From the NCBI GenBank assembly GCA_963747235.1, contig CAVVEU010000027.1, positions 29,689-93,688 of the forward strand: 64,000 nucleotides of DNA. The letters run 5' to 3'. The notes under the pieces were generated by a model. The model was not told the origin of the DNA. It did not search any database and saw nothing but the letters and a program-made list of their open reading frames with translations. Of the stretch, positions 5,573 through 48,256 are shown one piece after another. The position numbers and the translations under genes were made by a program. The first letter of the stretch is position 1, and each line of letters opens with the position of its first letter. Source of the stretch: an uncultured Candidatus Rokubacteria bacterium (GTDB lineage: Bacteria; Methylomirabilota; Methylomirabilia; Rokubacteriales; CSP1-6).

Positions 5573-6897
5573 GCCCGCTCTCGTTCTCGGCGCTGGACCT
5601 GCCCGGGCCGGTGCGCCGCGGCATCGAGGACGCGGGCTTCGCCGCCACCACCGCCATCCAGGAGGCGGCCCTGCCGCTCGCCCTGCGGGGCAAGGACGTG
5701 GCCGGCCAGTCCCAGACCGGCACCGGCAAGACCGCCGCCTTCCTGATCGCGGCCTTCACGCGTTGCCTGACCTACCCCGCCCCCGCCCGCAGCGGCGCGA
5801 CCGCGCCCCGCGTGCTCATCATCGCGCCCACCCGCGAGCTGGTGGTGCAGATCGAGGCGGACGCGCGGCTGCTCGGCGCGCACACCGGCCTGCGTATCCT
5901 CTCGGTCTACGGGGGCATCGACTACAACAAGCAGCGCGAGGACCTCCGGGAGGGCTGCGACGTGCTGGTCGGCACGCCGGGCCGGCTCATCGACTATCTG
6001 AAACAGCACGTGTGGTCGCCGGCCCGCGTCGAGGTGCTCGTCATCGACGAGGCCGACCGGATGTTCGACATGGGGTTCATCGCCGACCTCCGCTTCATCC
6101 TGCGGCGGCTGCCCAAGCCGGAGAAGCGGCAGTCGTTCCTGTTCTCGGCCACGCTTTCGTTCCGGGTGATGGAGCTGACCTGGGAGTTCATGAACAATCC
6201 GGTCCAGATCAGCATCACCCCGCAGCAGAAGACGGTGGAGAAGGCGGAGCAGGTGCTCTACCACGTCGGCCGGGAGGAGAAGTTCAATCTTCTCCTGGGG
6301 CTCCTGCGCCGCGAGGGCGGCAGCCGCATCCTGATCTTCTCGAACACGCGCGAGGAAGCGCGGCGGCTCGAGGATCGCCTGGGCCGGAACGGCTGGCAGG
6401 CCCGCGCGCTGACCGGCGACGTGGACCAGAAGAAGCGGCTCAAGATCCTGAACGACTTCAAGGACGGGCAGCTCCCGATCCTGGTCGCCACCGACGTGGC
6501 GTCGCGGGGTCTCCACATCGAGGGCGTGAGCCACGTCGTCAACTGGGACATGCCGCAGGACGCCGAGGACTACGTGCACCGCATCGGGCGCACCGCGCGG
6601 GCGGGCGCGGCCGGCAAGGCGATCAGCCTGGTGGACGAGGCGGGCGCGCTCGCGCTCGAGCCCATCGAGAAGTTCATCAGCCAGAAGATCCACGTGGACT
6701 GGGCGGAGGACGAGCTCTACCTGCCCGAGATCAAGCCCACCAGCGAGGAGCGCCGTCGCTACGCCGAGGAGAAGCGCGCGCGCATGGCGGCCCGCGGCGG
6801 CAGCGGTGGGCGGGGCGGCGGCCCGGGACGTCCGGGCGGTGGCGGCGGGGGCGGCCGGCGCGACGGGCGCTCCTCCGGCCGCGGCCCGCGCCGCTAG
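5569..6897 (+). CDS. DEAD-box RNA helicase (RhlB/RhlE-like)
   Basis: QTGTGKT, PTREL, DEADRM, SAT, HRIGRTAR, Gly/Arg-rich tail; GTG start overlaps the tatC stop. Confidence 0.93.
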   Translation: MSPLSFSALDLPGPVRRGIEDAGFAATTAIQEAALPLALRGKDVAGQSQTGTGKTAAFLIAAFTRCLTYPAPARSGATAPRVLIIAPTRELVVQIEADARLLGAHTGLRILSVYGGIDYNKQREDLREGCDVLVGTPGRLIDYLKQHVWSPARVEVLVIDEADRMFDMGFIADLRFILRRLPKPEKRQSFLFSATLSFRVMELTWEFMNNPVQISITPQQKTVEKAEQVLYHVGREEKFNLLLGLLRREGGSRILIFSNTREEARRLEDRLGRNGWQARALTGDVDQKKRLKILNDFKDGQLPILVATDVASRGLHIEGVSHVVNWDMPQDAEDYVHRIGRTARAGAAGKAISLVDEAGALALEPIEKFISQKIHVDWAEDELYLPEIKPTSEERRRYAEEKRARMAARGGSGGRGGGPGRPGGGGGGGRRDGRSSGRGPRR

Positions 6898-6939
6898 CTC
6901 CCCTCTCCCCGCGGGCGCGCGATCGACCTCCGCCTGCGA

Positions 6940-7596
6940 CTGCCGACCCGGAGCGTCGCCTCGCCGCCACGCTGGCCACCGGGTGGCGCGACTTCCTCTA
7001 CGCCCCCGGTCCCGGCTTCATCTCGCCGCTCGATCCCGGGCGCCTACCGCTCGAGCTTCGTGGTCGTCCCGACCCAGCGGCCCGGCGGTCCGCGTCTCGT
7101 CTCTCGTCGTGCCCGCCTTCGGCGGCGACCTGTGTCGCCTTCGGCTCGAGGCGCTCGAGCGCGACCCCTCCGAGAGCTTCGGCTCCTTCTTCGAGGTCAC
7201 GCGGACCGGCCGCGTCTACGCGCTGACGCCCGATCGCTCGGCGGCGGCCGCGCGGGCTCCCGAGCGGGCGGAGTGGCGCTACGAGGGCCCGGCGCTGGCC
7301 TCCCGGCTCGGTCGGATCAGCGGCCTGCGGCTGCTTCGCGAGCGGGTCCGCGGCCGGGACTTTTCCTGGCAGGCGGACCGCGGGCCGTGCTCACGGACGC
7401 CGCCGGCGGGCGAGTGTCTTCTGCTGAGCGGGGCGAGCCGTCGGAGACCGCGCTCTTCCTGCCGTCGCCCGGTCTGTTCCGCGCCGTCCTCGACCCGGGC
7501 GCTCCGCCAACCCCCGGGGTGACGTGCGCGACCTGCTCGGCTACGGCGCGTGGCCCGGCGACCTCGATGATCACGGTGGAGCTGCTCCCCTTGTAA
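6940..7596 (+). pseudogene. Hypothetical coding segment broken across several frames
   Basis: Protein-like stretches in three successive frames with no clear start. Confidence 0.3.
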
Positions 7597-16224: not shown

Positions 16225-18461
16225 TCAACGCGTCGCCACCACCCGGATCAGCGCGCCGTCGGATCGGGGCGGCGTGACCTCGCCGATGATCGCGGCGGCC
16301 CCGTCGCCGGCCGCCCGCACCGCGCTCAGCATCGCCGGGCCGCGCTCCCGGGGCACCGCGAGCAGCAGGCCGCCCGAGGTCTGGGGATCGAAGAGCAGGT
16401 CGAGCGCTGCCCGTCGCGCCGCGTCCGGCTCCACGAGCATCGCGCGCCGCGCGCGGGCGTTCTCGGGGTGCGCGGTGCTCCGGATGCCGCGGCCGAGCAG
16501 CGCCACCGCGCCGGGCAGGGCAGGGATCGTGGCGAGGTCGAGCACCGCCGAGGCCTTGCTCGCCGCGCAGCATCTCGCCCAGGTGCCCGGCCAGGCCGAA
16601 GCCGGTGACGTCGGTGGCGGCGGAGGGCCGCAGCGCGAGCATCGCGCGCGCGGCCGCGCCATTGGAGCGGAGCATCGAGGCGGCGGCCGCCTCCACCCAC
16701 TCGCCGCGCGCGAGGGCGCGCATGTCGGCCTGCAGGATGACGCCGGTGCCGAGTGGCTTGGTCAGGATGAGCTGGTCGCCGGGCGCGGCGCCGCCGATGC
16801 GGATCAGCGCATCGGCCGAGGCCGCGAAGCCCCAGACCGCGAAGCCCACCACCAGCTCGGGCCCCGTGGTGGTGTGGCCGCCCACGAGCGTGACGCCGTC
16901 GGCCTCGAGCGCGGCGCGGGCGCCCGCCATCACCTGGTAGAGCGTCTCCTCCGCGCGCGCCGGCTCGGCCTCGGGCACGCTCACCTGGGCCAGGGCGAAG
17001 CGCGGCGTCACGCCCTTGGCCCAGAGATCGCTGACCGCGTTGACCGCGGCGACGCGCCCGACCAGGTAGGGATCGTCGGCGAAGGCGCGGAAGGAGTCCA
17101 CCGTGGCCGCGACGATCTCGCCGCGCTCGGTCTCCACCGCCGCGGCGTCGTCGGGCTGGGCCAGGCCCAGGACGACGGCGGGATGGCTCGGGACGCCGAG
17201 GCGCTCGAGCGCGCGGGTCAGCGAGGATTCGCCCACCTTGGCCGCGCAGCCGCCGCAGAGCATGTCCCCGCCGGGCATCGGGCCGCCGCGAAGTCCGGCG
17301 TGACGGCGCCGTCCTGATCCAGCACCTGGAAGCGGCGCACGAAGCGGCGATCGATCCAGTCCTTGAGCGCGAATACCGCGCGGCCTTCGACCGAGGCGCC
17401 CCACTTGGTGCCGATCGCCCCGCCGTCCCCCAGGTTCAGCAGGGAGAGGAAGTCGACGCTGCGGGCGATACGCGCGGAGGCGCTCGCCGCGGATGCGCGC
17501 GATCAGGTTGTGCGCGAGCACCGGGCCCTGGCGGACCGCGTACACGCCGGCCTTGGCGAGGCCGGGGCCCGTCGGTCCACGCCGCGCAGTCGCCCACCGC
17601 GAAGACGTCGTCGTGCCCCACGCACTGCAGCGTCGGGCGGATCCGGACGAAGCCGCCCTCGTCGGTCTCGAGCCCGGAGCCGTCGAAGAGCGGCAGCGCG
17701 GCGGCGCCCGCCACCCAGACCACCGCGTCGGCGGGCAGCCGCTCGCCGCCTTCCAGGTGCACCGCGCCGGCCTCGACGCGCGTCACGCGCGTGCCCGTGC
17801 GGATCGCGATCCCGCGCGCCGCGGCCGCGGCCTGGACGCGGGCCGCCGCGCTCGCCGCGTAGCCCGGCAGCACGCGGGGGCCGGACTCGAGCAGGAGCAC
17901 CTCGACGCGCCCGGCGCGCTCACCGCGGAGCCGCGCCGCGAGCGCGAAGGCCACCTCGACGCCGCCCGCGCCCGCGCCGACCACGACGAGGCGCGCGGCG
18001 TCTCGGCCCCGCGCCGCGGCCAGCAGCTCGTCCACCCGGCGGACGAACTCGCCGATGGGGCGCGTGGGGATCGCGTGCTCGGCGACGCCGCGCAGCCCGA
18101 GCCCCGCCACCGTGGAGCCCACGTCGAAGGACACGGTGTCGTAGGCGATCGGCGGCCGGGCTTCCAGGACGAGGCGCCGTGCGGTGGTGTCGAGCCCGGT
18201 GGCCGGGGCGACGATGCAGCGGGCGCCCGCGCGCAGCGCCAGCGGCCGCACGTCGATCTCGAGGGCTTCCCGCGGGTACTGGCCGGCCACGAAGCCGGGC
18301 ACCATGCCGGAGTAGACCGCGACCGGCCGATCCACCACGAGGGTGAGGCGCGCCCCGGGGACGGGCGCCATGGCCCAGCGCTTGAGCACCTGGATGTGGG
18401 CGTGGCCGCCGCCCACGAGGACCAGGTCGTGCCGGATGGGAGCCGCGGACGGCGAGCGCAT
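16225..18461 (-). CDS. selD: FAD-dependent oxidoreductase - selenophosphate synthetase fusion (several frameshifts)
   Basis: N-terminal LVLVGGGHAH and GAGAGG; C-terminal CGGCAAKVG, DDAA, GGHT, LTKPLGTG, DVTGFGLAGHL, DPQTSGGLL. Confidence 0.9.
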
Positions 18462-18481
18462 GCCCGTCCGCGGTGGAGCCG

Positions 18482-20792
18482 TCAGTGCTTGCCGTTGACC
18501 AGGGACAGCGCGATGCGCTCCGGGCTCATCGGCAGCTCGGTCAGGCGCACCCCGGTCGCGTTCTGGATGGCGTTGGCGATCGCGGCGGGCGCCGGGATGA
18601 TGGGCGGCTCGCCGACGCCGCGGGCGCCGAAGGGACCGGCGGGCGCGGGCACCTCGACGATGATGGTCTCGAGATTGGGCAGGTCCGCCGCGGTCAGCTT
18701 GCGGTAGTCGAGCAGGCTCGGATTCGTGAGCCGCCCGACGTCGTCGAAGAGCAGCCCTTCCGTCAGCGCCATGCCGATGGACTGCACGGCCCCGCCCTGC
18801 ATCTGGCCCGCGACGCCCATCGGGTTGATCGCCTTGCCCACGTCCTGCACGACCACGAAGTCCAGCAGCGTCACCTCGCCGGTGTCCGGATCGAGCTCGA
18901 GCCGCGCGAGCTGGGCCGCGAAGCCGGGGGCCTGCTGGGTGAACGCCGGGTTGGCCTTGCCGAGCACCGGCGGCGTCTTCGACATGTAGAGGTTGCCCTT
19001 CTTGCCGATGGAGGCCAGCGTGATGCCCTTGCTCGGCGCGCCGCGCACCGTGACCTTGCCGTCCACCAGCTCGAGGTCGTGCACCGAGGCCTCGAGCTCC
19101 GCCGCCGCGATCTCGAACGTCTGCCGCCGCGCGTCTTCCGCCGCCTGCAGCACCGCGGCGCCGACCGTGTAGATGGTCTTGCTGCCCGCGCTCAGCCCGG
19201 TCATCGGGCGCCACGTCGGTGTCGCCGGTGGTGATGCGCACCAGGTCGGTGTCCACGCCGTAGGCGGACGCCGCGATCTGGGCCAGCGAGATGTTGGTGC
19301 CCGCGATGTCCACCTGGCCGGTGAGCACCGCGAGCGTGCCATCGGGATTCAGTCGGACCGTCGCGCCGGTGGGCTGGAGCCCGCCGAGCCAGCCGCCGAG
19401 GGCCAGGCCCACGCCGCGGCGCTTGCCGTTCTTGCTCCCGGTGATCCACTGCTTGCGGCTCTTCCAGTGCGGGTGCTCGGCGATGCGGGCGAGCACCTGC
19501 TTGGCCCCGTTGTTCTGCCAGGGCTGGCCGTTCACCATCGGATCGCCTTCCTGGATCAGGTGGCGCATCCGGAACTCGACCGAATCGAGATCGAGATCGC
19601 GGGCGATCTGCTCCATCTGCGACTCGATCGCGAAGATGGTCTGCGGCGCCACCGGCGCGCGGTAGGCGGCCACGCTCGGCTTGTGGGTCAGCACCTCGAA
19701 GCCGCGGATGTCGAACGACGGCCACTTGTACATGCTGCCGAGGAAGACCGCGCTCACCGCGAGCACCGCGCCGGAGTACGCGCCGGAGTCGATGACGGTC
19801 TCCGCGTCGAGGGCCATGAGGGTGCCGTCGCGCTTGACGCCGGTCTTGAGCTTGATGATGACCTGCGGGGCGGGCATGCCCGCCTGCAGCTCTTCCCGCC
19901 GCGTCATGACGTAGCGCACCGGGCGCTTGGTGACCTGCGCCAGCACCGCGGTGATCGGCTCGCAGAGCGCGCGGATCTTGCCGCCGAAGCCGCCGCCGCA
20001 CTCCACCGGGATGACCCGGATCGAGTTCTCGGGGATGCCGAGCACGTCGGCCACCTCGGAGCGCGTGTTGAACGAGCCCTGGGTGCTGGCCCAGAGCGTG
20101 AGCAGCCCGTTGCGGTCCCACTCGGCCAGGACCGCGTGCGGCTCGAGGTAGCCCTGGTGCACCATCGGCACGCGGTAGGTCTTCTCGAGGATGTGATCCG
20201 ACTCCGCGAAGCCCTTGGCCGGGTCGCCGCGCTGCAGCCGGGCCTGCTGCGAGATGTTCACCGCCTTCGCGGGCGTGTCGCTCTTGGCGATGGCCACCGC
20301 GGAGTGGGCGAGCGCCTCGCTGGTGTCGGCCTCGGTGCCCGCGTCGGCCACCGGCGGCGCGCCGGGCAGCATGGCCTTGAGCGGATCGATCGAGGCGGCC
20401 AGCACCTGGTACTCGACCTTGATGAGGTCGAGCGCTTCCTCGGCGATGGACGGCTCGTCCGCGGCCACCGCGGCCACCGGCTGGCCCATGAACACCACGC
20501 GGTCGATGGCGAGCACGGCGTGGGCGCGCGTCGGCGCCTTCTTCTTGAGATGCGGGATGTCCTTGGCGGTGATGACCGCGCGCACGCCGGGCAGCGCCTT
20601 GGCCGCGCTGGTGTCGATCGAGACGATCTTGGCGTGGGCGTGCGGGCTGCGCAGCAGCTTGGCGTGCAGCAGGCCCTTGGCCTGGATGTCGGCCACGTAC
20701 TGCACGCGGCCGGTGACCTTCTCGGGGCCGTCCGGCCGCGGAATCGAGATGCCGACTCCCTTGACGTCGCGCGTGGTCTTCATCGTGCTCAT
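18482..20792 (-). CDS. Xanthine dehydrogenase-family molybdopterin-binding subunit (frameshift near 19205)
   Basis: LRSPHAHA, GGGFGGK, AYRAP, GQMQGG, GARGVGEPP. Confidence 0.92.
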
Positions 20793-44464: not shown

Positions 44465-45567
44465 TGGCCATCGAGTTCATCGGCATGATCGGAGTGCGGC
44501 CCGAAGGGGCCGACGGCGCCGCGGTGCACGTGATCGGCGGCGAGATCGACATGGCATGGGTCCGGGAGTTCTCCCAGGCCCACGAGCGCGCGGGCTTCGA
44601 CAAGGTGCTGGTGGGCTACACGTCCACCTCCGCGGACGGCTTCCTGGTCTCGGCCTATGCCGCGGCCCACACCGAGCGGCTCGGCTATCTGCTCGCCCAC
44701 CGCCCCGGCTTCGTCGCGCCCACGCTGGCCGCGCGCAAGGCGGCCACGCTCGATCAGCTCTCGGGCGGCCGGCTCGCGCTCCACATCATCACCGGCGGCA
44801 GCGACGCCGACCAGGCGCGCGACGGCGACTTCGTGGACCACGACACGCGCTACCGCCGCACCGACGAGTATCTCGGGCTGATGCGGCGCGTGTGGACGGA
44901 GGCGCGGCCCTTCGACCACGCCGGCGAGTTCTACCGGGTCACCGCGGCCTACTCGGACGTCAAGCCGGTGCAGCGGCCGCACGTGCCGCTCTACTTCGGC
45001 GGCGCCTCGGAGGCCGCGCACCGGATCGGCGTCCGCCACTGCGACGTCTACATGCTGTGGGGCGAGCCGCTCGCCGCGATCCGCGACCGCATCGCGACCG
45101 TGCGCGCGGCGGCGGCGGAGGCCGGCCGGGAGCCGGGCGCGCCGCGGTTCAGCGTGTCGCTGCGGCCGATCATCGCGCCCACCGAGGCGCAGGCCTGGGC
45201 CAAGGCGCGCACGATCCTGGAGCAGGTGCAGTCGAAGCAGGGCCAGCGCGCCGTCCCCCAGCCCGAGGCGGTGGGCGCCCGCCGCTTGGTGGACTTCGCC
45301 CAGCAGGCCGACGTGCACGACAAGCGGCTCTGGACGCCGATCGCGGCGGCCGTCGGCGGCCAGGGCAATACCACCGCGCTGGTGGGCACGCCCGAGCAGG
45401 TGGCCGAGGCGCTGCTCGATTACTACGATCTCGGCGTGACCACGCTGCTGATCCGCGGCTTCGACCCGCTCAACGACGCGATCGAGTACGGCCGCGAGCT
45501 CATCCCCCTGGTGAAGACCGAGGTCGCCCGCCGCGAGCGGGATCGCGCGGCGGCGCTCGCGCGGTGA
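44464..45567 (+). CDS. LLM-class flavin-dependent monooxygenase (SsuD-like)
   Basis: LAHRPG, ATLDQLSGGR, YFGGAS, LVGTPEQVA. Confidence 0.9.
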   Translation: MAIEFIGMIGVRPEGADGAAVHVIGGEIDMAWVREFSQAHERAGFDKVLVGYTSTSADGFLVSAYAAAHTERLGYLLAHRPGFVAPTLAARKAATLDQLSGGRLALHIITGGSDADQARDGDFVDHDTRYRRTDEYLGLMRRVWTEARPFDHAGEFYRVTAAYSDVKPVQRPHVPLYFGGASEAAHRIGVRHCDVYMLWGEPLAAIRDRIATVRAAAAEAGREPGAPRFSVSLRPIIAPTEAQAWAKARTILEQVQSKQGQRAVPQPEAVGARRLVDFAQQADVHDKRLWTPIAAAVGGQGNTTALVGTPEQVAEALLDYYDLGVTTLLIRGFDPLNDAIEYGRELIPLVKTEVARRERDRAAALAR

Positions 45568-46139
45568 CGCGGCTCCTGGCCGTGGTGGGCGCGGTGACGC
45601 CGCCGGGGCGCCTCGACGCGGCGGTGCGCTTCGCGGCCGACCGCGCGGCCGCCCGGCAGCGGGACGTCTCCGCCACCGTGCTGAGCCTGGGCGCGCATCG
45701 CGTCTCCTTCGCGGACGGGCGCCCGCTCGACCGCTACCCCGACGACACCGCGCGCGTCGTCGGCGCGATCGCCGAGGCCGACGCGGTGCTGCTCGCGAGC
45801 CCGGTCTACCGCGCCTCGTTCACCGGCGCGCTCAAGAACCTGCTCGATCTCACGCCGGTGGAGGCGCTGCGGGCCAAGCCGGTGGGCATCGTGGCGATGG
45901 GCGCGACGCTCCATCACTACCTGGGCGTGGACTGGCAGCTCCGCGCGGTGCTGGCCTGGTTCGGGGCGCTGGTGGTGCCGACCAGCGTGTACCTCGAGTC
46001 CGGCCACTTCCAGGACGGCAAGCTCGCCGATCCCGCCGCCCGCGCCGCTCTCGACGATCTCGTGGGTGCGCTCGTCGCGATGGCGGGCCACGCCCGGGAT
46101 CAGGCCGGCCCGCCCCCGCTGGCGGCGGGGCGCGGCTAG
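45564..46139 (+). CDS. NAD(P)H-dependent FMN reductase (SsuE-like)
   Basis: ASPVYRASFTGALKNLLD. Confidence 0.88.
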   Translation: MTRLLAVVGAVTPPGRLDAAVRFAADRAAARQRDVSATVLSLGAHRVSFADGRPLDRYPDDTARVVGAIAEADAVLLASPVYRASFTGALKNLLDLTPVEALRAKPVGIVAMGATLHHYLGVDWQLRAVLAWFGALVVPTSVYLESGHFQDGKLADPAARAALDDLVGALVAMAGHARDQAGPPPLAAGRG

Positions 46140-46217
46140 GTCCGAATCCTCATCGCGCGGTTTTCGCGCGCCAGTGTAAGCCTCGTTCGAGCGCCGCGCC
46201 GGCGCACCCGTCCGAGG

Positions 46218-46246
46218 TCGGAGGGGGCCGTCAAGGCCCCCTCCGA
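46218..46246. repeat. 12-bp perfect hairpin TCGGAGGGGGCC-GTCAA-GGCCCCCTCCGA
   Basis: Direct inspection; lies between convergent genes. Confidence 0.7.
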
Positions 46247-46249
46247 GAA

Positions 46250-46787
46250 CAAGGCCGCGGATGACGTCGCGCGCGGCGGCGCTCTTCCAGTCGCGGCCGC
46301 CGACGATCCGGCCGACCAGGCGCCCCTCGCGGTCCACCAGGTAGGCGGTGGGCGGCCCGAAGACGCCGTACACCCGCCCCGTGAGGTCGCCCGAGGCGTC
46401 GAGGAGCACCGGCGCGGTGTAGCCGCGCTCGGCGACGGTCCGCTTCACGACGTCGCTACTCTCGCGAAAGCTGATCAACAAGACCTCGAGCCCCTGCCCC
46501 TTGAATTCCTCGTACAGCCGATTGACGGAAGGTAACTCCTCCCGGCAGGTCGTTCACCAGGTGGCCCAGAAGAAGAGCAGCAGCGCCTTGCCCTTCTGGT
46601 CTTCGAGCCGCACCGTGCGGCCGTCGAGCGCGGGCAGGGCGAAGGCGGGCGCCGGCCTGGGCGACTCGTAGGCCTGCACGCCCATCTTCTCCCAGGCCGG
46701 CGGCGCGGCGGCGGGTTGCGCCGCCGCGGCCCCGGCCCAGAGCGCCGCCGCGATCAGGATGGACGCGGCGAGCGGGCGTCTACTCAC
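46250..46787 (-). CDS. Exported TlpA/ResA-like disulfide reductase, putative selenoprotein (UxxC); 3' end unresolved
   Basis: APAFALPALDG..LFFWATW-TGA(46556-46554)-TTCREELPSV.., continuing in frame to PTAYLVDREG; SECIS-like stem. Confidence 0.88.
46527..46543 (-). promoter_or_regulatory. Candidate bacterial SECIS element
   Basis: GGGAGG-AGTTA-CCTTCC hairpin; 16 nt lie between the UGA and the loop, with G at loop position 2. Confidence 0.6.
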
Positions 46788-47344
46788 GCGCCCGAGTCCT
46801 TGAGCGCCTTCAGCACTTCCGCGGGATCCAGCAGGTCGAGCGCGTTGTCCTGGATCTTCATGTACCGGACCACGCCGTTCTTGTCGATCACGTAGTAGGC
46901 GCGCTTGGCGTAGCGGAAGATCGGGCTCTTGTCGTCGGTGACCAGCGCGTCGTACCCGGGCAGCATCGCGCGGCGGAAGTCGGACAGGAGGGGGTAGCTG
47001 ATCTTGTTCTGCTTGGTGAAGGCGTCCAGCGTGGCTGCGTGGTCGGCGCTCACTCCGATGACCTGGGCGCCGGCGGCCGTGAACTGGGGTAGGGTCTCCT
47101 CGAAACCGAGGAGCTCCTTGGTTCAGGTACTGGTGAATGCCTGGATGAAGGTGAAGACGACGACGGGGCCCTTGGCGGTCAGGTCGGACAGCTTCACGGG
47201 CTTGCCGCCGGGGCCGGGCAGGGTGAAATCGGGCGCTTTCTGGCCGACTTCCAGGGCCGTGGCGGGTCCGGCCGAGCCGAGACCGGCGGCGACCAGGCCG
47301 GCCAGCAGCAGGGCCGCGACCAGGAGCGGGGTCATTCGACGCAT
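46784..47344 (-). CDS. Exported peroxiredoxin (AhpE/BCP-like), putative selenoprotein (TxxU)
   Basis: VGQKAPDFTL..AFTST-TGA(47125-47123)-TKEL.., continuing in frame to GVSAD, LLSDF, KRAYYVIDKNG; SECIS-like stem. Confidence 0.9.
47096..47113 (-). promoter_or_regulatory. Candidate bacterial SECIS element
   Basis: CTCCTCG-GTTT-CGAGGAG hairpin; 16 nt lie between the UGA and a loop that starts with G. Confidence 0.7.
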
Positions 47345-47431
47345 GGCGTTCTCCTTTCCAGGGTGAGAGGTGACGCCCACACAACGGGCGGTGGGCTCCC
47401 GAAGTTTCCGGGCCACGCGCATAATGCTCGC

Positions 47432-48256
47432 ATGGATCGGATGATCGCTGGCGAGCCTATCGTCGCGAGCGGCATGGCCTGGACGATACACCGGGAGCGG
47501 GTGCTCCTGGCCGGCTGGGGCCGGGCCATCCTGCTCCAGATCGCCCACCCGAAGGTGGCGCGCGGGGTGGCCGAGCACAGCGGGTTCACGGCCGATCGCT
47601 GGGGGCGGCTCCGGCGCCTGCACCGGACGCTGTCCGCCATGCTCGCCCTGACCTTCGGCTCGGAGGTGGAGGCCGCGGGCTCGGCCGCGCGGATCAATGC
47701 CATCCACGACCGCGTCCACGGCCGGCTCGGGGAGCCGGAGGGGGGCGCGTCCTACAGCGCCCACGATCCGGAGCTGCTCACCTGGGTGCACGCCACCCTG
47801 ATCGAGTCGTTCCTGCTGACGTACCGCCTCTTCGTGGCGCCGGTCACGACCGAGGAAGCCGATCGGTACTGCGCAGAGGCCGGCGGCATCGAGGCGGCGC
47901 TCGGAATCCCGCCGGGCCGGTTGCCGCGCAGGGAGCGCGACCTCCGCGAGTACCTGGACGCGATGCTCGCGGGCGGCTCGATCGAGGTGACCGACACCGC
48001 CCGGCGGCTCTCGCGCGAGATCATCAGGCCGCCGGCGCCGGCGCTCGTCCGGCCCGCCCTCTGGCTGGCCGCGCTGCCGGCCATCGGCCTCCTGCCTCCC
48101 GCGATCCGCGAGGCCTACGGGTTTCCCTGGAATGACCGCCGGGCGCGGGCGCTGCGCGTCCTGGCCGCCGTGACGCGCAGCGGTCTCCCGCTGGCGCCGC
48201 CGGCCCTTCGTTACTGGGCGCGGGCGCGGCGCGCGGAGCGACGGGCGCGCCGGTGA
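47432..48256 (+). CDS. Oxygenase MpaB/DUF2236 family protein
   Basis: RAILLQIAHPKVA, INAIHDRV, DPELLTWVHATL. Confidence 0.85.
   Translation: MDRMIAGEPIVASGMAWTIHRERVLLAGWGRAILLQIAHPKVARGVAEHSGFTADRWGRLRRLHRTLSAMLALTFGSEVEAAGSAARINAIHDRVHGRLGEPEGGASYSAHDPELLTWVHATLIESFLLTYRLFVAPVTTEEADRYCAEAGGIEAALGIPPGRLPRRERDLREYLDAMLAGGSIEVTDTARRLSREIIRPPAPALVRPALWLAALPAIGLLPPAIREAYGFPWNDRRARALRVLAAVTRSGLPLAPPALRYWARARRAERRARR

Follow-up and report, generated by a model that had tools for sequence, protein, structure and literature searches.

A probable UxxC selenoprotein of the TlpA/ResA type encoded next to a peroxiredoxin in a soil Rokubacterium

Locus and in-frame UGA codon

The DNA analysed here (the window) comprises 64,000 nucleotides of contig CAVVEU010000027.1 from an uncultured soil bacterium of Candidatus Rokubacteria. 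On its minus strand lies the gene of a TlpA/ResA-like protein in which a TGA codon (46556-46554) occupies the first position of a U-T-T-C redox motif (Table 1). We consider it very probable that this TGA is a genuine selenocysteine (Sec, U) codon within one gene for an apparently exported redoxin of the ResA/TlpA type. The gene follows that of a peroxiredoxin (Prx), the TGA stop of which (46786-46784) overlaps its GTG start as GTGA. The translation begins with MSRRPLAASILIAAALWAGAAAAQ (residues 1-24), and the active site is encoded as GKALLLFFWATW-TGA-ACG-ACC-TGC-REELPSVNRLY.

An initial annotation of this DNA had placed the TGA at the first Cys of a WCxxC motif and had proposed that the thioredoxin fold continues in frame beyond it. 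Both statements were borne out. The codon aligns with that Cys both in Cys homologues of full length and in solved structures of ResA/TlpA-like proteins, and past the UGA the frame stays open through VLLD...YGVFGPPTAYLVDREG, giving a complete thioredoxin-like domain. The gene end proposed in the same annotation, 46250, held in part: in-frame homology to relatives stops there, but there is no stop codon at that position, the first one in frame being 45425-45423. The term 'hidden' that it used for the gene was fair, since the close public homologues listed are mostly C-terminal fragments of ca. 100 amino acids.

The case for Sec combines the conserved UGA, a co-varying hairpin behind it, selection on the downstream frame and the presence of a Sec machinery in the genome, from which we infer that the UGA is decoded as Sec and that selenium is incorporated at U78. 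The hairpin, which starts 9 nt after the UGA and has its loop at +16, would recruit SelB with Sec-tRNA(Sec) during translation, and UGA 46556-46554 would then be decoded as Sec, not as stop.

TABLE 1 Features of the locus and of the source genome (G000). Positions are those of the window unless a contig (C) of the source genome is named.
Feature	Position	Strand	Remarks
TlpA/ResA-like UxxC selenoprotein gene (probable)	46231..46787	-	extent set by relatives; GTG start 46787-46785; basis: Pfam, translation, tail alignment
Putative signal peptide or signal anchor	46716..46787	-	by eye: charged n-region, hydrophobic core, Ala-rich end; MSRRPLAASILIAAALWAGAAAAQ
Sec codon UGA (U78)	46554..46556	-	first position of U-T-T-C redox motif, inside LFFWATW-TGA-ACG-ACC-TGC
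TGC, resolving Cys (C81) of UxxC	46545..46547	-	invariant: TGC 30, TGT 3 (33 distinct Sec-form sequences)
bSECIS element	46519..46552	-	minimum free energy structure, pair counts
Upper stem of bSECIS, 7 bp	46544-46538 pairs with 46532-46526	-	CGGGAGG-AGUUA-CCUUCCG, 46544-46526
Loop of bSECIS, AGUUA, 5 nt	46537-46533	-	starts 16 nt after UGA
Weaker lower stem of bSECIS	46552-46546 / 46524-46519	-	minimum free energy structure
Run-on reading frame	45423..46250	-	first in-frame stop 45425-45423; antisense to convergent genes
Perfect 10-bp hairpin GGAGGGGGCC-TTGAC-GGCCCCCTCC	46220..46244	-	loop contains relatives' stop TGA; no T run after it
Sec-peroxiredoxin gene, 186 aa, FTST-U-TKE	46784..47344	-	upstream of TlpA-like gene; Pfam AhpC-TSA 9.7e-32
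Prx Sec UGA (47125-47123) and hairpin CUCCUCG-GUUU-CGAGGAG	47096..47125	-	loop 16 nt after UGA
selD, selenophosphate synthetase, Cys form	16345..17257	-	TIGR00476, 227.8 bits, over cut-off; 30 kb from TlpA-like gene, same window
selB	G000:C14:40679-42565	same as selA and tRNA-Sec	365 bits, over cut-off
selA	G000:C14:42603-43955	same as selB and tRNA-Sec	578 bits, over cut-off
tRNA-Sec	G000:C14:45384-45481	same as selA and selB	
Further candidate Sec stretches	G000:C14:101486-101917; C17:11934-12440; C33:382740-383168; C9:13537-13965; C13:173883-174215		

Hairpin downstream of the UGA

The sequence that begins 9 bases after the TGA can form a hairpin of the bacterial selenocysteine insertion sequence (bSECIS) type. 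The consensus bSECIS model given in section 5 of a 2026 review (PMC13188914) has a loop of 3-9 nt, an upper stem of 4-16 bp, a G in the first two loop positions, a spacing of 16-37 nt between UGA and loop, and a minimum free energy (MFE) of -7.5 kcal/mol or lower. The hairpin of the TlpA-like gene agrees with this model, with a 5-nt loop, a 7-bp stem, a spacing of 16 nt and an MFE of -13.6 kcal/mol, and the second loop position is a G, followed by U. The annotation had already located this loop 16 nt after the UGA, had noted equal spacing in the Prx gene and had called the TTA and CCT codons in the hairpin out of place. We found the same: the hairpin sequence reads CGGGAGG-AGTTA-CCTTCCG at 46544-46526, the Prx loop also lies 16 nt after TGA 47125-47123, and in 1647 long open reading frames (ORFs) with high G+C at third codon positions (GC3) Leu is encoded by TTA in 0.06% of cases and Pro by CCT in 3.2%, a rarity that is somewhat overstated because these ORFs were picked by GC3 > 0.85.

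Pairing in the hairpin was conserved in the relatives and showed covariation. In 34 Sec-form sequences (28 distinct), 90.4% of the pair cells were standard pairs, as compared to 30-56% in controls with the 3' partners slid by 1-3 columns, and in all 28 distinct sequences the upper stem kept its six inner pairs. Four pairs change on both sides among the Sec-form sequences, with compensatory changes at pairs 14-30 (GC<->CG), 17-27 (AU<->GC) and 16-28 (GU/AU/GC). The covariation score was 0.154 against a shuffled mean of 0.089, and none of 500 shuffles reached it. More compensatory arm variants, CGGAGGG/CCCTCCG and CGGTCGG/CCGACCG, occur in loci from named public metagenome-assembled genomes (MAGs). 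The loop sequence is constant as AGUU(A/G), with AGGUA in one locus of the genus and one of the named-MAG loci. In the three homologues with a Cys codon the hairpin was absent from all three, with ordinary GC-rich codons at its place.

Conservation and selection

Loci of relatives were collected by a six-frame search that reads through stops. The TGA within FFWATW-U-(T/P)(T/D)-C was present in 20/20 loci of the same genus, the window's own copy being one of the 20. A wider set (L018-L057) had TGA in 37 of 40 loci and TGC or TGT in the remaining three, and among the loci from named public MAGs, nearly all titled Rokubacteria, Rokuibacteriota, Methylomirabilota or NC10, the count was 80/80. In an even sample of the phylum an orthologue was found at E <= 1e-45 in 84 of 151 genomes, and 87 of 88 matches had exactly one TGA; without three unpublished genomes (G068, G095 and G132) the numbers are 81/148 genomes and 84/85 matches. 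Sec-form relatives span down to about 51-60% protein identity, and all their loci keep the co-varying hairpin. Within the searches made, the Sec clade of the TlpA-like protein was confined to Rokubacteria/Methylomirabilota/NC10 MAGs and had Sec almost without exception. The TGA is also spanned by contigs of four public runs from related strains, mostly 90-99% alike, with no listed difference at the codon.

Synonymous variation was lowest over the hairpin. At codons +4 to +9 the synonymous entropy in the genus set was 0.12 bits versus 0.69 bits elsewhere, and no other 6-codon window in the 131 codons studied varied less. The median dN/dS in 36 comparisons was 0.33 after the UGA and 0.23 before it, and the frame downstream of the UGA is under purifying selection. 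The annotation had named a sequencing error at the codon and a non-conserved downstream frame as ways in which its proposal could be wrong. The recurrence of the TGA in independent assemblies shows that it is not a sequencing error, and the downstream frame is conserved; the covariation, the absence of the hairpin from the Cys homologues and the low synonymous variation, which bear on the homologue and structure comparisons that it had suggested, also came out in its favor.

Two further observations concern the distribution of the gene. One contig (C110 of genome G037) carries a Sec form with Prx upstream and a Cys form 11 kb apart (6601-7233 and 17944-18492; L038 and L041), the latter being 55-59% identical, with TGC, no hairpin and no Prx. 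Furthermore, 10 of 80 close loci (60-89% identity; L058, L061, L065, L067, L072, L074, L078, L116, L124 and L132) belong to MAGs whose record titles name unrelated taxa: Limnocylindria, Acidoferrum, Deferrimicrobiaceae, Nitrosotalea, Dormiibacterota, Verrucomicrobiia (two records), Tepidiformaceae, Binatia and Solibacteraceae. Mislabelling or mis-binning of these records seems a better explanation than transfer.

Protein family and predicted structure

The protein scores above the Pfam cut-offs for AhpC-TSA (PF00578; 6.6e-26, 91.1 bits vs 26) and Redoxin (PF08534; 5.3e-20, 72.2 bits vs 26.6). It missed the NCBIfam cut-offs of ResA (NF002854; 99.1 vs 170 bits), TlpA (NF047696; 72.5 vs 230), DsbE (TIGR00385; 56 vs 123) and WAxxUGC (NF041054; 56.5 vs 300 bits), and no NCBIfam family was above cut-off for either this protein or the Prx. 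The TlpA-like protein is thus ResA/TlpA-like in fold and motif and an equivalog of no named family. Since no NCBIfam model scores above cut-off for either gene, annotation pipelines keep cutting both in two, and the main practical value of the present assignment is in the annotation of such split selenoprotein genes.

The nearest solved sequences are 3kcm, a thioredoxin-family protein of Geobacter metallireducens (phmmer, 1.3e-28), Bacillus ResA (4nmu, 2.5e-26; 1st9) and Bradyrhizobium TlpA (1jfu), in all of which the first Cys of WCxxC aligns with U. In the AlphaFold model (pLDDT 84, pTM 0.78) U78 stands directly before helix 79-98. Foldseek gave target-normalised TM scores of 0.85-0.90 to ResA of B. 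subtilis / B. anthracis (4nmu, 1st9 and 1su9) and 3kcm and of ca. 0.71 to TlpA 1jfu. With ResA and 3kcm the rmsd was 1.5-1.9 Å over ca. 136 columns at 30-37% identity, and their W-C-x-x-C-(K/R)-x-E-x-P motif aligns with W-U-T-T-C-R-E-E-L-P. Unlike ResA, the protein has Sec for the first Cys and lacks a cytochrome c maturation context. P146-T147 is invariant and aligns with the PT (cis-Pro) motif, and from the ResA literature we take P146 to be the cis-proline. The model has a pLDDT below 50 over most of residues 1-24, in line with the putative signal peptide or anchor there. A Tat signal was rejected because orthologues do not share the SRRP/RR pair of the window copy.

Three full-length database homologues (P0004, P0005 and P0014) have G, W or L in place of U. 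Gene prediction with genetic codes 25 and 4 on metagenome contigs of short length could account for the G and the W, the Sec then being hidden as Gly or Trp.

Selenocysteine machinery and genetic code

The source genome (5.57 Mb in 42 contigs, 88% complete, 70.7% GC) encodes a complete Sec system, with selB, selA and tRNA-Sec clustered at G000:C14:40679-45481 and selD in the window itself. The window's selD occurs in two frames, the last 75 profile positions of TIGR00476 being matched in another frame, and a second selD-like stretch (G000:C8:303114-303868) matches in three frames. These frame breaks could reflect assembly indel errors or decaying genes. TGA is the commonest stop of the genome and terminates 963 of 1640 long ORFs; as the commonest ordinary stop it shows that the genetic code is not reassigned.

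Additional in-frame TGAs were seen at the catalytic position of thioredoxin-fold or peroxiredoxin-like stretches in the same genome, with motifs GGI-U-TPE, GRW-U-PYC, DTPG-U-TAEGC and WASW-U-GC. In the case of DTPG-U-TAEGC, two contigs share an identical 26-residue stretch around the TGA. The source genome seems to be rich in selenoproteins.

3' end of the gene

The frame of the window copy continues beyond the point where its relatives end. Compared to the closest relatives, L019 and L020, the window lacks one base near 46248/46247, just before their stop. L019 ends with RGLVDRKGP-TGA, and the matching TGA (46233-46231) is out of frame in the window. The missing base thus puts the stop of the relatives out of frame and lets the frame run on to 45423. 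Of the 117 Sec-form genes in the count, 114 have their stop 103-115 codons past U and two run off the locus; 73 of 114 orthologues end in TGA. The representative of the sequence cluster (P0016), which is 98% identical in the thioredoxin domain, has a normal end. A contig of run X1 (95-99% alike, depth 3.9) has no indel at ca. 46248 and has five small insertions at 46195-46217. Several public-run contigs diverge at 46249-46257, which is only variation between strains in an intergenic stretch. The two frames of selD hint at indel errors in the assembly. The missing base, be it an error of assembly or a true frameshift, leaves the catalytic domain intact. The 10-bp hairpin at 46220-46244 may be a terminator-like element that lacks a T run.

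The upstream peroxiredoxin and a possible relay

The Prx encoded upstream is itself an unannotated selenoprotein with its own hairpin and a signal-like N-terminus, and by sequence it is apparently exported. A Prx gene lies upstream of the TlpA-like gene in 20/20 loci of the genus and in 12 of 13 loci that carry a Sec form of 51-63% identity. No Prx was found beside the Cys paralogue or beside a second, more distant Sec subgroup (L052, L053, L055 and L056). Among the orthologues found across Rokubacteria/Methylomirabilota, Sec and almost never Cys is kept in the Prx/TlpA-like arrangement. In 54 of 56 Prx orthologues the stretch that begins 45 residues before U and extends to the C-terminus has no Cys. 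Lacking an internal resolving residue, the Prx needs recycling by an outside reductant, and the UxxC redoxin encoded by the overlapping gene would be the obvious candidate. Genes for DsbD-like (DsbD_N + DsbD_TM) and CcdA-like proteins are present in the source genome, both away from the locus.

Gene order and the missing resolving Cys lead us to propose, with about even confidence, that the TlpA-like protein recycles the neighboring Prx outside the cytoplasm. In the proposed chemistry, the selenenic acid of the Prx would be attacked by U78 of the TlpA-like protein, C81 would resolve the mixed Se-Se bond to form an internal Se-S bond, and a membrane transporter of the DsbD/CcdA type would re-reduce the TlpA-like protein. 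Such a relay would be a selenium version of the ScsB -> TlpA -> PprX envelope pathway of Caulobacter. Envelope peroxide reduction by that pathway was demonstrated in Caulobacter crescentus (Cho et al. 2012, PMC3322552). The two systems have in common a TlpA-like thioredoxin and a Prx, both apparently exported here, and a DsbD-family protein in the genome. The present pair differs in that both catalytic residues are Sec, in that the Prx lacks a resolving Cys whereas PprX has two Cys, and in that the genes form one translationally coupled operon with no linked ScsB/DsbD.

The stronger proposal, that the two genes encode an obligate all-selenium relay for peroxide removal in the envelope, in which a Cys-free one-Sec Prx is recycled via a selenenyl-selenide (Se-Se) by its UxxC TlpA-like partner, is more doubtful and is put forward tentatively. 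If true, the relay would represent extracytoplasmic redox chemistry without a sulfur step at the peroxidase, unlike characterised pairs of Prx and reductant. This all-selenium, Cys-free peroxidase/reductant pair is the feature most worth an experiment, and a Cys-free Sec-Prx with its redoxin would offer a simple two-protein system for asking what Sec gains over Cys in an oxidising compartment. In a narrow literature search, which did not extend to supplements, we found no paper describing a Sec-Prx/TlpA-like pair.

Alternative explanations

Two explanations dispense with Sec altogether. If the TGA were a nonsense mutation or a sequencing or assembly error, the locus would hold a pseudogene or two unrelated short ORFs. 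Translation table 11 indeed gives two ORFs, the public calls are mostly ca. 100-aa fragments, and with selD the assembly has at least one more apparent break of frame. We nevertheless assign this explanation a negligible probability: the same TGA recurs in the independently assembled loci of all three sets (20/20, 37/40 and 80/80), the downstream frame is under purifying selection, and a split at codon 78 would cut the thioredoxin fold at its active site. Read-through of the UGA as Trp, Cys or Gly, by a reassigned code or leaky termination, is very improbable too. The homologues with G, W or L at this position would fit it, and they may be translations under code 25 or 4. Against such read-through stand the frequent use of TGA as a stop, both in the long ORFs of the genome and in the orthologues themselves, the complete Sec system, and the position of the UGA at a redox Cys, with a hairpin behind it that co-varies and agrees with the bSECIS model. 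Conservation and stop-codon use led us to reject a pseudogene, a sequencing error and a reassigned code. A different matter is whether a genuine Sec gene is decaying in this particular genome, a real 1-nt deletion before the stop having added ca. 270 antisense-encoded residues so that the product is aberrant or unstable while the family is functional. This is a serious possibility, if somewhat short of even. The base missing relative to L019 and L020 and the fact that only one of 117 genes has more than 115 codons after U speak for it, and the X1 contig, which has no indel there, was taken as a sign that the variant also exists outside this assembly. That contig has low depth and the five further insertions, and it may stem from the source sample; the public-run records are contigs, in which rare variants drop out. 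The intact thioredoxin domain, nearly identical to that of a representative with a normal end, and the second apparent frame break in selD, which makes an indel error plausible, also argue against decay.

For a real Sec redoxin the main alternative to a Prx partner is a classical ResA/TlpA role in cytochrome maturation. The protein could act as ResA, CcmG or TlpA do on apocytochrome c, CoxB or ScoI, or serve general disulfide reduction in the envelope. Reduction of apocytochrome c, CoxB or ScoI precedes insertion of haem or copper. We regard another substrate as rather unlikely. ResA and TlpA, which the protein matches best in sequence and fold, are cytochrome-maturation enzymes, and one orthologue (L039) and the distant Sec subgroup have no adjoining Prx. 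On the other hand, the gene overlaps the Prx stop and the pairing is kept in nearly all genus and distant loci, the Prx orthologues have no Cys to resolve a selenenic acid, and the ResA and TlpA scores are far under the NCBIfam cut-offs. In addition, no gene for cytochrome c or Cu-centre biogenesis was found at the locus when the neighbors were inspected by eye; they encode a luciferase-like monooxygenase, an FMN reductase, a DUF2236-like protein and an acetyltransferase.

Several points weigh against our reading of the locus as a functional selenoprotein gene with a Prx partner. The window copy, with 376 codons after U, is the outlier among the Sec-form genes counted, and a copy that has lost its normal stop might be impaired. 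The selD gene, split over two frames, may mean that the selenium donor gene is damaged or mis-assembled here. Much of the conservation is among close kin and is not independent. The folding energy of the hairpin is ordinary for its composition (z = -1.0; 36 of 200 shuffles were equally stable), and in such G+C-rich DNA it was dropped as evidence for the hairpin. The lower stem is weakly supported, since four of its pairs fail to form in 5-8 of the 28 distinct sequences. An Rfam scan of 46000-47500 at E <= 1 gave no match, which tells little because, to our knowledge, Rfam has no general bacterial SECIS model. Contigs from one RNA-library run, records 12 (46482-46684) and 15 (46524-47353), cover the locus; they demonstrate neither transcription nor the form that the 3' end takes in the source genome. 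Apparent export of the TlpA-like protein was judged by eye from its sequence. With respect to the relay, the locus lacks a gene for a membrane electron donor, and no Prx lies in the 1.2 kb upstream of the Sec-form orthologue L039.

Relation to known selenoproteins

UxxC selenoproteins with the TlpA/ResA fold have been listed in catalogues for some two decades, and the gene described here is a member of this long-known kind. Table 1 of a review of predicted prokaryotic selenoproteins (PMC13188914) includes a 'Prx-like thiol:disulfide oxidoreductase' (PF00578, UxxC/UxxU), which by 2006 had been counted in Geobacter, Syntrophus and Desulfotalea (PMC1794560). The GOS survey (PMC2398784) includes several UxxC families termed 'Prx-like', and TlpA selenoproteins have been reported in algae as well (PMC7539508). 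The present protein has in common with the 'Prx-like thiol:disulfide oxidoreductase' the PF00578 domain, a UxxC motif with Sec first, a bSECIS right after the UGA and the existence of Cys homologues; this likeness was drawn by domain and motif. The same review, citing Deng et al. 2026, mentions a Methylomirabilota MAG with 63 predicted selenoprotein genes, and Methylomirabilota is given there, again after another paper, as the phylum with the largest predicted bacterial selenoproteome.

The TlpA-like gene leaves unchanged what is known of Sec decoding or of the kinds of protein that use Sec. It adds a well-supported case with clean covariation, with Sec codons in 80/80 named-MAG loci, to the selenoproteome of Rokubacteria/Methylomirabilota. 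The protein resembles the WAxxUGC or UGC-containing TlpA family (NF041054) in its TlpA-like fold and in having Sec in the active site. Its motif is U-T-T-C and not U-G-C, and it is not a member of that family. A candidate of the WAxxUGC type was seen elsewhere in the same genome, at C13:173883-174215, with the motif WASW-U-GC.

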